Shown here piece by piece: positions 12,192 through 13,796 of a stretch of 64,000 bases of DNA. Each line of letters begins with the position of its first letter. Positions within the stretch are counted from its first letter, which is position 1. The notes beneath the pieces are model-generated. The model saw nothing but the letters and a program-made list of their open reading frames with translations, was not told the origin of the DNA and did not search any database. This stretch comes from Bacteroidales bacterium (GTDB taxonomy: Bacteria; Bacteroidota; Bacteroidia; Bacteroidales; GCA-2711565). The position numbers and the translations under genes were made by a program. The stretch spans positions 3,489,127 to 3,553,126 of the forward strand of contig OY775914.1 in NCBI GenBank assembly GCA_963675215.1. The letters run 5' to 3'.

Positions 12192-13796
12192 ATGAAAAAT
12201 TCAAATAGCATCACAAGCAACAAAACTAAAGTGGATGGTACAAAACAAATTGTTATCATTACAGAATCAGATGTGAATCACATGATGGATCGATATCATT
12301 ACTCAGATGATATTCGAAAAATTATTGAAAAAGAAAACCTCTTACCTACCGGATTATTAAGCAGAATTCAAAAAAACTATCCTCAGCACTCAGGTTTGAA
12401 TGAAGACATAAATTTCATGTTCACTACAAAAAACAAATATGTAGGACTTAAAGGATTTCATGAAATTGTTGAGACATTGCGAGAAAATGGTATTGATATT
12501 GGATTTATTCAGGAACGTGAACTATTCATCAAGGTATATCGATTTATGGTAACCAAGCATGTTTTGAATACCATTAACTGGAATAATTTTGCCAAGGATT
12601 CTGTTTTTCAGCTGGTCTTTCCTCAACCAGGAATGATACTTCCGGATGCAACAAAGATGTATATTGATGCAAAAAGCGAAGCGGAGAGAGAAAAAATAGT
12701 TGCGGATTACATGGAAAAAACAAATCCACATGATGGCAAACAACAATTAAACAGACCCTCTTTCGAAAATGAAAATTGCGAAACCGAAATTTTGGAAGGT
12801 AGCCAACATAAATATCCTCAATGTCAGCTAATTTTTGATAAAACAACTCAAAGTTGCTTTTCATTTTGCACCTATTGTTTTAGACACGCACAAGTTAGAG
12901 GTGATGAAGATATGTTCGTCCAAAATGAAATCAAGCCTGTACACGACTATATAAAACAACACAAAGAAGTCAGTGACATGTTACTTACAGGCGGTGATGC
13001 AGGTTATATGCCTCATGATAGACTTGAACAGTATCTGCTTCCTCTAATTGAAGATCAGGAACTAACACATGTCAGAACTTTAAGAATTGGAACCAGATCT
13101 CTTACTTTTGAACCTGAAATGTTTATTAGGAGTGAATATGATAAAACACTAAAACTTTTCCAAAAGTTAGTTGATAATGGAGTACAGGTAGTACTCATGT
13201 CACACTTTTCAACTCCTCGTGAACTATTGAACCCAAGCACAATTGCAGCCATTAGAAGGCTTAGAGCACATGGAGTAGTGATTAAAAGCCAAAGCCCTGT
13301 AATGAATCACATCAGTTTATTTACAGATGATAATGGCAAAGTTGATATTGACCGTTCAGCTCAGAATTGGATTGATTTAGGTAATATTTTCGCCATGCTT
13401 TCGATAGGATTCCATTCAATGTATTGTGCACGCCCAACCGGTGAGCATCATTATTTTACCGTTCCATTATCCGAATTGAATAAAATTTTCAGTAAAGTTT
13501 ACAGATCTTTGGCTTCTATAAACCGTCCTTCCAGATATATTACAATGACCTCTTCTGCAGGAAAAACTTCCATACTTGGAACTGCTGAGGTAAATGGAGA
13601 AAAAGTATACGCTCTGAAATTTAATGAGAGTAGAAACATGGAATGGATGGATAAAGTTTTTCTAGCCAAATACGATGAACATGAAAATACGGTAGAGAAA
13701 CTAATTCCTTTTGATACGGATCAATTCTTTTTTGAAGGTGAATTGAAACAAATTGAACAATCGCTAAATGACTCTTTAAAGAGCGGCAAGAAATAG
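12192..13796 (+). CDS. KamA-family radical-SAM/PLP amino acid 2,3-aminomutase, divergent and probably not lysine-specific
   Basis: QHKYP, CFSFCTYCFR (CxxxCxxC at 222/226/229 plus R231), LLTGGD, LRIGTR, HFSTPREL, QSPV, candidate PLP lysine in SSAGK (K458). Confidence 0.88.
   Translation: MKNSNSITSNKTKVDGTKQIVIITESDVNHMMDRYHYSDDIRKIIEKENLLPTGLLSRIQKNYPQHSGLNEDINFMFTTKNKYVGLKGFHEIVETLRENGIDIGFIQERELFIKVYRFMVTKHVLNTINWNNFAKDSVFQLVFPQPGMILPDATKMYIDAKSEAEREKIVADYMEKTNPHDGKQQLNRPSFENENCETEILEGSQHKYPQCQLIFDKTTQSCFSFCTYCFRHAQVRGDEDMFVQNEIKPVHDYIKQHKEVSDMLLTGGDAGYMPHDRLEQYLLPLIEDQELTHVRTLRIGTRSLTFEPEMFIRSEYDKTLKLFQKLVDNGVQVVLMSHFSTPRELLNPSTIAAIRRLRAHGVVIKSQSPVMNHISLFTDDNGKVDIDRSAQNWIDLGNIFAMLSIGFHSMYCARPTGEHHYFTVPLSELNKIFSKVYRSLASINRPSRYITMTSSAGKTSILGTAEVNGEKVYALKFNESRNMEWMDKVFLAKYDEHENTVEKLIPFDTDQFFFEGELKQIEQSLNDSLKSGKK

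Follow-up and report, generated by a model that had tools for sequence, protein, structure and literature searches.

The gene neighbours of a 534 amino acid KamA-like protein, encoded in a 64,000-nucleotide stretch of a Bacteroidales genome (contig OY775914.1; this whole stretch is referred to here as the window), suggest that the protein is an aminomutase that shifts the amino group of 2-aminoadipate, a product of lysine breakdown. Conserved operon partners and linkage to genes of the saccharopine pathway support an acidic amino acid as the substrate, most likely 2-aminoadipate. The predicted active site carries an arginine (R414) at, or next to, the position of D293 in Clostridium subterminale lysine 2,3-aminomutase (LAM, the KamA protein of PDB entry 2A5H), a charge swap that on the alignments described below is both real and invariant in the family. 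The same arginine is also found across a broad clade, however, and by itself does not reveal the substrate. To our knowledge, the established substrates of KamA-type aminomutases are few (lysine, glutamate and arginine), and an enzyme acting on 2-aminoadipate would represent a new reaction for the group and bring with it a new metabolite, 3-aminoadipate. A literature search found no enzymology of 3-aminoadipate and no description of a 2-aminoadipate 2,3-aminomutase.

The region to which attention was first drawn (12855-13565) runs exactly from the codon for C222 to that for K458 of a single open reading frame (Table 1). Its product scores 81.5 bits against TIGR00238 (KamA family radical SAM; cut-off 199.2), 69.9 bits against TIGR03820 (lysine 2,3-aminomutase; equivalog cut-off 525.4) and 62.8 bits against TIGR04368 (glutamate 2,3-aminomutase; equivalog cut-off 650), below the cut-off in every case. 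It is a remote KamA branch that NCBI's TIGR00238 model does not capture. There are 1605 homologues, the best 120 of which are 65-100% identical to the query, and all family conservation counts given here refer to 183 distinct family sequences. The protein is predicted to be a divergent KamA-family amino acid 2,3-aminomutase dependent on both PLP and radical SAM chemistry.

Table 1 Features of the aminomutase gene and its operon (positions are those of the window; conservation is given as the number of family sequences)
Feature	Position	Strand	Basis or conservation
KamA-like radical-SAM/PLP aminomutase, putative 2-aminoadipate 2,3-aminomutase	12192..13796	+	ORF, 534 aa
CxxxCxxC motif (C222, C226, C229) for [4Fe-4S] cluster	12855..12878	+	Aligned to LAM C125/C129/C132; 183/183
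R231, equivalent of LAM R134	12882..12884	+	phmmer alignment; 183/183
R414, at LAM D293 (BLASTP, MAFFT) or one residue past (hhalign)	13431..13433	+	183/183
T451, at LAM D330	13542..13544	+	BLASTP, hhalign; Thr 162/183, Ser 21/183
K458, equivalent of PLP-binding LAM K337	13563..13565	+	BLASTP, hhalign, MAFFT; 183/183
3-oxoacid CoA-transferase subunit A, PcaI/ScoA family	13820..14533	+	TIGR02429, 354 bits (cut-off 128.5)
3-oxoacid CoA-transferase subunit B, PcaJ/ScoB family	14527..15183	+	TIGR02428, 311 bits (cut-off 243.55)
Class-III (GSAM-like) aminotransferase, putative beta-amino-acid transaminase	15225..16562	+	PF00202; best PDB match 6K8H
3-oxoadipyl-CoA thiolase type, PcaF	16573..17775	+	TIGR02430, 664.6 bits (cut-off 597); NF006551, 687.5 bits (cut-off 605)

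The only PDB sequence match found by phmmer is LAM, in an alignment that ends at residue 372 of the query and pairs C222, C226, C229 and R231 with LAM C125, C129, C132 and R134. In the translated reading frame these four residues, as well as R414, T451 and K458, lie where the first-pass annotation had placed them. R231 is kept across the family, the wider clade described below and canonical KamA; its LAM counterpart, R134, is taken here to bind the alpha-carboxylate of the substrate. The AlphaFold model of the protein is clearly LAM-like (VIA-align Z 25.9, rmsd 3.6 over 329 aligned residues, the next entry having Z 11.1; Foldseek E 1e-14). At only about 20-25% identity, the two proteins share the fold, the CxxxCxxC motif, the GGD SAM motif, the PLP lysine and a series of further residues (LAM H230, E236 and Q258; H338, E344 and Q367 in the aminomutase). 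They differ in that the aminomutase has an additional N-terminal region of ~70-100 residues, an insertion at 375-385 and Phe-His-Ser in place of the Pro-Tyr-Tyr found at LAM 286-288, as well as in the substrate pocket.

D293 and D330 of LAM hold the epsilon-ammonium group of lysine, and D293 is reportedly among the residues that bind the far end of the substrate. The LAM numbering and an 18-residue LAM segment on which the charge swap was originally argued both proved correct when checked through the genome's own canonical KamA (L081:1309-2580), which aligns gap-free to 2A5H with an offset of +53 and whose D346, D383 and K390 correspond to LAM D293, D330 and K337. BLASTP comparison of the aminomutase with this paralogue (E 7e-16, ungapped over residues 404-462) pairs R414 with D293, T451 with D330 and K458 with K337. 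BLASTP, MAFFT and hhalign agree on the last two pairings. The first also has the backing of four MAFFT alignments, which place R414 in the D293 column, but hhalign (probability 98.2%) introduces a one-residue gap after Y411 so that C412 pairs with C292, A413 with D293 and R414 with residue 294. The Cys-Cys pair that anchors the hhalign register is weak, as C412 is conserved in no more than 172 of the 183 family members. The loop that holds R414 (residues 413-420) has a pLDDT below 50 in the AlphaFold model. Both of the lysine enzymes examined at the D293 site, LAM and Escherichia coli EpmB, the latter annotated as a lysine 2,3-aminomutase, have aspartate there (EpmB by MAFFT). The database label 'lysine 2,3-aminomutase' on homologues of the arginine-bearing protein is very probably wrong.

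How far does the arginine extend? Of 65 distant relatives aligned (24-40% identity), the majority have arginine in the R414 column together with arginine at positions 445 and 448, each of which is invariant in the family itself (183/183), and serine at 451. The ten Bacteroidia members of this wider clade whose neighbourhoods were examined all show the full pattern (Arg, R445/R448 and Ser451); the CoA-transferase/aminotransferase/thiolase operon is absent at all ten, and these ten share no common neighbour genes. Ten members of the clade scanned against NCBIfam pass no equivalog cut-off, and the sequence-cluster names for the clade are 'KamA family' only. The caution originally attached to the charge swap, that arginine here might be common to a wider KamA-like subfamily, was therefore well placed. 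Because ten operon-less clade members carry it, arginine in the R414 column does not mark one diacid, and the suggestion that an Arg/Thr pair signals a diacid different from that of the glutamate enzyme fails, the Arg and Ser451 pattern being present in those same ten proteins. The proposal that the pocket binds a distal carboxylate fares better, though in part only: the replacement of aspartate by an invariant arginine stands, but the arginine is clade-wide and it is the operon context that supports an acidic C6 substrate.

Since R414 is a trait of this much broader clade, the finer substrate specificity more probably sits in residues kept by the operon-type family alone. These comprise F407-H408-S409 (the replacement for Pro-Tyr-Tyr), E418, R236, R277, R302, R355, R438 and the insertion at 375-385, and it is in such family-only residues, rather than in R414, that annotators should look for specificity. 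It is possible, if on balance unlikely, that the substrate is indeed an acid such as 2-aminoadipate while R414 serves the whole clade as a cofactor-binding or structural arginine and perhaps stands in for LAM R112, R116 or R130, with the family-only residues setting specificity. Several other arginines have moved in comparison with canonical KamA (R112 is replaced by K207, R116 by C211 and R130 by T227), so that R414 might make up for a cofactor or structural contact that has been lost. Consistent with such a role, R414, R445, R448 and K207 are common to a wide clade whose gene contexts are unrelated, the family-only invariants include five arginines (R236, R277, R302, R355 and R438) alongside H408/S409 for Tyr-Tyr and the insertion, and hhalign sets R414 one residue away from D293. 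Against it, R414 lies at or beside a residue that binds the far end of the substrate in LAM and that is aspartate in both of the lysine enzymes examined, and the wide clade may itself consist of acidic amino acid mutases.

The case for 2-aminoadipate comes from the neighbouring genes. The order aminomutase-ctfA-ctfB-aminotransferase-thiolase is strongly conserved, with the four partners present in 79, 78, 76 and 69 of 80 loci, respectively, and every absence, including the 11 thiolase absences, is located where a contig ends. Most of the hosts are uncultured members of Bacteroidales, Cloacimonadota and similar lineages, although one locus (L067) belongs to the cultured Ancylomarina salipaludis, the records being labelled Bacteroidales, Cloacimonadota, Ignavibacteriae, Krumholzibacteriia, Acidobacteria, SAR324, Balneolales and Edwardsbacteria. 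The CoA-transferase subunits and thiolase fit the families of the lower beta-ketoadipate pathway (PcaIJ and PcaF), the thiolase scoring above its equivalog cut-off, but here these genes come after those for an aminomutase and a transaminase, and not after genes for aromatic ring cleavage. The aminomutase belongs to a catabolic operon of PcaIJF-type genes and is not accompanied there by kamDE, kdd and kce. The best PDB match of the operon aminotransferase is 6K8H (390.6 bits), a Sphaerobacter thermophilus beta/gamma-amino-acid transaminase that acts on free beta/gamma-amino acids; the beta-transaminases 4AO9 and 2YKU are also matched.

A link to the saccharopine pathway is seen both in gene order and in gene content. 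At five loci (L009, L011, L026, L056 and L070), a Sacchrp_dh gene and an LKR-type gene (AlaDh_PNT) lie directly upstream of the operon on the same strand. The window's genome encodes LKR and two SDH proteins at C1:2170070-2174318, the best PDB match of the former being the LKR domain of human AASS (259 bits) and those of the latter saccharopine reductase or AASS SDH (283-289 bits). An LKR orthologue of at least 42% identity is present in 34 of 47 operon genomes but in only one of 250 other Bacteroidia sampled; none of these 250 carries an orthologue of the aminomutase, for which reason they serve as a background set alone. The separation holds at the threshold of at least 42% identity only: at E 1e-40 or better, LKR is found in 44 of 47 operon genomes and in 202 of 251 genomes of the comparison set, and does not discriminate because of a common paralogue at 31-40% identity. 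The specific orthologue is missing in the remaining 13 of the 47 operon genomes, five of which carry the classical lysine-fermentation cluster. None of the operons examined contains or adjoins a gene for a 2-aminoadipate-semialdehyde dehydrogenase. The four aldehyde dehydrogenases of the window's genome all lie away from the operon, and none is assigned to this reaction.

Taken in sequence, these genes would specify the following route. LKR and SDH would turn lysine into 2-aminoadipate; the aminomutase, judging by its context, would convert L-2-aminoadipate to 3-aminoadipate; the operon transaminase would yield 3-oxoadipate; the PcaIJ-type CoA-transferase would form 3-oxoadipyl-CoA; and the PcaF-type thiolase would cleave this to succinyl-CoA and acetyl-CoA. 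R414 may help to bind the distal carboxylate, a suggestion we make with less confidence. We lean, by a modest degree, towards this explanation as a whole, that is, towards a KamA-like 2-aminoadipate 2,3-aminomutase feeding the 3-oxoadipate route from lysine by way of saccharopine. If true, lysine would pass through saccharopine, 2-aminoadipate, 3-aminoadipate and 3-oxoadipate (or its CoA ester) to succinyl-CoA and acetyl-CoA in an oxygen-independent manner, which would explain how many uncultured anaerobes complete the saccharopine breakdown of lysine in the absence of oxygen-dependent steps. More tentatively, the family might represent an undescribed radical-SAM specificity and an oxygen-independent lysine route spread across many, mostly anaerobic, phyla, with R414, R445 and R448 marking a large clade of acidic amino acid mutases.

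A basic residue replacing an acidic one in the aminomutase pocket would also suit L-glutamate. The protein would then add a second type to the glutamate 2,3-aminomutases, its product beta-glutamate being transaminated to 3-oxoglutarate, which would either be activated and cleaved or be decarboxylated to acetoacetate for a ScoAB-type transferase and thiolase. More than one type of glutamate 2,3-aminomutase has been reported, and the CoA-transferase family model spans ScoAB as well as PcaIJ. The known glutamate enzyme (Eam) reportedly has Lys and Asn at the two LAM aspartate positions; the logic is alike, with non-acidic residues at both positions for an acidic side chain, but the aminomutase has Arg and Thr where Eam is said to have Lys and Asn. 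We nevertheless regard glutamate as an improbable substrate: the operon thiolase lies above the 3-oxoadipyl-CoA thiolase equivalog cut-off, the aminomutase reaches only 62.8 bits against the cut-off of 650 for TIGR04368, and the LKR/SDH fusion and co-occurrence indicate a lysine-derived C6 acid. The operon context points likewise to a C6 diacid and not to the C5 diacid of Eam.

The remaining alternative, in which the KamA-like protein is an ordinary lysine 2,3-aminomutase and the operon the lower half of a variant lysine fermentation with an AtoDA-type transferase, Kat (3-aminobutyryl-CoA aminotransferase) and thiolase (Perret et al. 2011), is close to refuted, the aminomutase having Arg and Thr where LAM binds the amine of lysine and the window's genome holding a separate canonical KamA with Asp/Asp. 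Perret et al. (PMC3149608) do describe a HemL-like class-III beta-transaminase, tied to lysine breakdown, beside a thiolase in a Cloacimonadota and a Bacteroidetes genome, an arrangement that resembles the one seen here, and a Kce-type gene occurs in 6 of 47 operon genomes, accompanied by KamD in all five of those tested. Kce was not found in the other 41, however, and neither Kce (BKACE) nor KamD was found in the window's 96%-complete single-contig genome, the KamD search having been validated by its matches in other genomes (5/5). Lysine fermentation was accordingly set aside as a general source of the substrate. Five operon genomes do carry both Kce and KamD.

Nor does the operon aminotransferase appear to be Kat, an identity that would change the order of the pathway. 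A Kat-type gene, located by means of the primer of Perret et al., encodes a protein only 29% identical to the operon enzyme, and its thiolase, which is 40% identical, lies upstream of the Kat-type gene. The name Kat is absent among the best 120 homologues (71-100% identity) of a Cloacimonadota operon aminotransferase. Kat is described as accepting thioester substrates only (PMC3149608), in contrast to the free beta/gamma-amino acids attributed to 6K8H, the best solved relative of the operon aminotransferase.

HGLS/YdiJ-like genes downstream of the operon were also considered as part of the system and rejected: of the 44 loci that extend far enough downstream, only 5 contain such genes, which on that account are taken to reflect lineage-specific synteny.

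The first-pass annotation had placed an aminomutase active site at 12855-13565, an interval that begins at the codon for C222, ends at that for K458 and lies entirely within the first gene of a tight operon (see table). Family models describe the encoded protein poorly: the sole Pfam match, Radical_SAM, is below threshold, and three NCBIfam cut-offs are not reached (TIGR00238, KamA family, 81.5 bits against 199.2; lysine-enzyme model, 69.9 against 525.4; glutamate-enzyme model, 62.8 against 650). A sequence search of the PDB returned a single match, lysine 2,3-aminomutase (LAM; 2A5H, E 1e-12), in which C222/C226/C229/R231 align with LAM C125/C129/C132/R134; this alignment stops at query residue 372, short of R414, T451 and K458. 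There are 1605 family homologues, the best 120 of which are 65-100% identical to the query, 513-573 aa long and named either 'hypothetical' or 'lysine 2,3-aminomutase'. Among 183 distinct family sequences, C222, C226, C229, R231, the T-G-G-D motif, R414, R445, R448 and K458 are invariant (183/183). The aminomutase has the KamA fold and retains the cluster site, the SAM motif, the Arg for the alpha-carboxylate and the Lys for PLP. Thr is found at position 451 in 162 sequences and Ser in the other 21, so what is conserved there is a hydroxyl side chain and not Thr as such.

Features of the operon, its surroundings and related genes elsewhere in the same genome (G000, contig C1)
Feature	Position	Strand	Remark
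KamA-like aminomutase	12192-13796	+	534 aa, heads operon
CoA-transferase subunit A (PcaI/ScoA family; ctfA)	13820-14533	+	operon
CoA-transferase subunit B (PcaJ/ScoB family; ctfB)	14527-15183	+	operon
Class-III aminotransferase	15225-16562	+	operon
Thiolase, 3-oxoadipyl-CoA type	16573-17775	+	operon; 664.6 vs cut-off 597; 687.5 vs cut-off 605
153-aa ORF	17903-18364	+	directly 3' of thiolase
HGLS-like + FAD-oxidase/4Fe-4S pair	20087-23833	+	2.3 kb downstream of operon, beyond lipoate-protein ligase
LKR-type gene, then two tandem Sacchrp_dh paralogs (446, 445 aa)	G000:C1:2170070-2174318 (L090:6083-10349)		outside window
Canonical Asp/Asp KamA	G000:C1:2414808-2416079 (L081:1309-2580)		outside window; 438 bits to 2A5H
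Third KamA-like protein, 752 aa	G000:C1:2971955-2974213 (L082:808-3066)		outside window

To carry over LAM numbering we used the canonical KamA (423 aa) of the window's genome (one 4.05-Mb contig) as reference. Its gapless alignment to 2A5H has an offset of +53, so that D346, D383 and K390 correspond to D293, D330 and K337, and the LAM numbering and segment given in the first-pass annotation proved correct. In LAM, D293 and D330 bind lysine's amine and R134 the alpha-carboxylate. BLASTP of the aminomutase against canonical KamA (E 7e-16) is gapless over 404-462 and pairs R414 with D293, T451 with D330 and K458 with K337, as originally assigned. Multiple alignment, proposed as a check on R414, gave the same answer: MAFFT was run on four different sets of sequences and put it in the D293 column each time; in E. 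coli EpmB, which carries a lysine 2,3-aminomutase annotation, this column holds Asp. Distant relatives, which keep Pro-Tyr-Tyr and the closing Tyr/His-Phe at LAM spacing and so bridge the family and LAM, have Arg at the place of LAM's Asp in MAFFT. Comparison of a 45-member family profile with canonical KamA by hhalign (probability 98.2%), however, opens a one-residue gap after Y411 and matches C412 to C292, A413 to D293 and R414 to position 294. We prefer the gapless register because C412 is kept in only 172/183 family members. As judged from these alignments, the family Arg lies 'at or next to' D293, an exact match being unproven, and in place of LAM's two amine-binding Asp residues the family has Arg, or the residue beside it, and Thr/Ser.

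An AlphaFold2 model of the aminomutase, built from a 45-sequence alignment without cofactors, has a mean pLDDT of 79.9 and a pTM of 0.85. The top Foldseek match is 2A5H (E 1e-14), and VIA-align superposes model residues 71-484 on 2A5H chain 3-390 with Z 25.9 and rmsd 3.6 Å over 329 aligned residues, the next entry reaching Z 11.1; over the stretch that matters here, the predicted fold clearly resembles that of LAM. pLDDT falls below 50 in two loops, that of the cluster (221-240) and that of R414 (413-420), and the modelled strand 406-412 stops just short of R414. R414 may be the ligand of the distal carboxylate, a reasonable role but one that is somewhat less likely than not. It may just as well make a cofactor or structural contact that has moved, several LAM arginines being gone in the family (R112 to K207, R116 to C211, R130 to T227).

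The first-pass annotation had cautioned that the Arg might be common to a wider KamA-like subfamily, and rightly so. Among 1.84 billion representatives, the query's own family forms one cluster (P0121, 62% identity), beyond which lies a long tail at 24-40%. Most of 65 aligned tail relatives have Arg in the 414 column, within x-R-D-T-G or Q-C-R-P type motifs, and they also carry two further arginines (columns 445 and 448), a Ser in column 451 and the PLP-site Gly-Lys. Their source names read just 'KamA family', the Q-C-R-P type being archaeal, and none of ten compared with NCBIfam passed an equivalog cut-off. In a sample of 251 Bacteroidia genomes the true orthologue is found in the window's genome only; 19 of the 250 others carry a stand-alone KamA-like paralogue (~445 aa, 33-39% identity to the query). 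All ten fetched copies (L091-L100) have the Arg/Arg/Arg/Ser/Lys pattern, yet their neighbourhoods have no gene family in common and the CoA-transferase, aminotransferase and thiolase set is present in 0/10. The charge swap, real as an observation, is therefore the marker of a broad clade rather than of one diacid. In a three-way comparison, the residues common to family and wide clade and absent from canonical KamA include K207, R414, T416, G417, R445 and R448; the family-only features include F407-H408-S409 (for Pro-Tyr-Tyr 286-288), E418, R236, R277, R302, R355, R438 and an insertion at 375-385.

Gene context is more informative. In 80 loci, from genomes taken one per species, the order is invariably aminomutase, ctfA, ctfB, aminotransferase, thiolase, the last four being present in 79, 78, 76 and 69 loci respectively, with all misses at contig ends. 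The records are labelled Bacteroidales, Lentimicrobiaceae, Salinivirgaceae, Ancylomarina, Cloacimonadota, Ignavibacteriae, Krumholzibacteriia, Acidobacteria, SAR324, Balneolales and Edwardsbacteria. The thiolase is above both 3-oxoadipyl-CoA thiolase equivalog cut-offs. The aminotransferase has as closest solved relative 6K8H (390.6 bits), followed by ForI, GSAMs and the beta-transaminases 4AO9 and 2YKU; PMC10589169 describes 6K8H as a Sphaerobacter thermophilus transaminase acting on beta- and gamma-amino acids. This set of PcaIJ- and PcaF-type genes with a beta-transaminase-like enzyme is thus conserved as a unit.

The operon is also linked to LKR and SDH. Sacchrp_dh and AlaDh_PNT-type genes lie directly upstream on the same strand in five loci (L009, L011, L026, L056, L070), four of them labelled Cloacimonadota. 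The window's genome has both gene types together as well, with a second Sacchrp_dh gene (see table); the closest PDB relatives are the human AASS LKR domain (259 bits) for the LKR-type protein and saccharopine reductase, Lys9 and the AASS SDH domain (283-289 bits) for the Sacchrp_dh proteins. An LKR-type match at E 1e-40 or better occurs in 44/47 operon genomes versus 202/251 background Bacteroidia (a tally that takes in two genomes flagged unpublished, G094 and G180), the latter because of a common paralogue at 31-40% identity; a threshold of at least 42% identity gives 34/47 versus 1/250 other Bacteroidia. As relatives are non-independent, this co-occurrence is a pattern, not a statistic.

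Lysine would be converted by LKR and SDH to 2-aminoadipate semialdehyde and by a putative dehydrogenase to 2-aminoadipate. This second step is a gap in the proposed route: no aldehyde dehydrogenase adjoins the LKR/Sacchrp_dh genes, and the four in the genome, two of P5C-dehydrogenase type, all lie elsewhere. The aminomutase would then yield 3-aminoadipate, the operon transaminase 3-oxoadipate, PcaIJ 3-oxoadipyl-CoA and PcaF succinyl-CoA and acetyl-CoA; either transamination or CoA transfer could come first. A literature search for 3-aminoadipate or an aminoadipate aminomutase found no enzymology. An acidic substrate, likely 2-aminoadipate, is plausible and somewhat favoured, mainly from operon and lysine context. 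The original reading of Arg/Thr as a code for a different diacid loses force, since the wider clade has the pair as well.

Alternatively, the operon might be the Kat-type variant lysine-fermentation system of Perret et al. (2011). In that report (PMC3149608), Kat is a HemL-like aminotransferase that accepts beta-aminoacyl thioesters only and whose gene neighbours a thiolase gene in Cloacimonadota and Bacteroidetes. A Kat-type gene, obtained via a forward primer given there, encodes a protein only 29% identical to the operon aminotransferase; its neighbouring thiolase is 40% identical to ours and lies upstream of that gene. Neither Kce (BKACE) nor KamD was found in the window's genome (the KamD search works, since 5/5 other genomes matched), and Kce is in only 6/47 operon genomes. 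With canonical KamA present and KamD and Kce not found, beta-lysine would have a use other than lysine fermentation. Ten operon genomes, however, have the distant LKR paralogue only; five of the six Kce-bearing genomes are among them and all five carry KamD, which counts against the 2-aminoadipate reading. These five (G274, G281, G282, G286, G289; loci L039, L049, L053, L057, L067) combine a classical lysine-fermentation cluster with the operon, with a few kb between KamD and Kce in four or more of them. In this minority the substrate may come from another source, or the operon may serve both routes.

Clustering of flanking ORFs gave three recurrent neighbours, one of them the Sacchrp_dh and AlaDh_PNT-type pair described above. 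In 24/81 loci (e.g. L006:3126-3686) the gene immediately 5' of the aminomutase encodes an HTH_3 + Cupin_2 regulator; this gene is missing from the window, where the aminomutase is instead preceded by 524 bp of intergenic DNA adjoining the divergent miaA and CCA-adding-enzyme genes. An SSF symporter is upstream in six loci. The 153-aa ORF, with no Pfam or NCBIfam match, recurs at the same place at 54-90% identity in five loci (L001, L002, L005, L007, L042). The HGLS/YdiJ-like pair is found in the same five, of 44 loci long enough; its first member, of 270 aa, matches HGLS in part (PF07063, 2-oxoadipate dioxygenase/decarboxylase family), the match being split in two in L005, and the second, of 972 aa, has as best NCBIfam model D-2-hydroxyglutarate dehydrogenase YdiJ (673.7 bits, cut-off 1350). 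This pair would be a second 2-oxoadipate-type module beside the putative 2-aminoadipate operon. For the 752-aa KamA-like protein, two MAFFT alignments put a Lys at the D293 column, and the best equivalog is glutamate 2,3-aminomutase (111 bits, cut-off 650); its gene divergently adjoins a P5C-dehydrogenase-type aldehyde dehydrogenase at 2970202-2971575.
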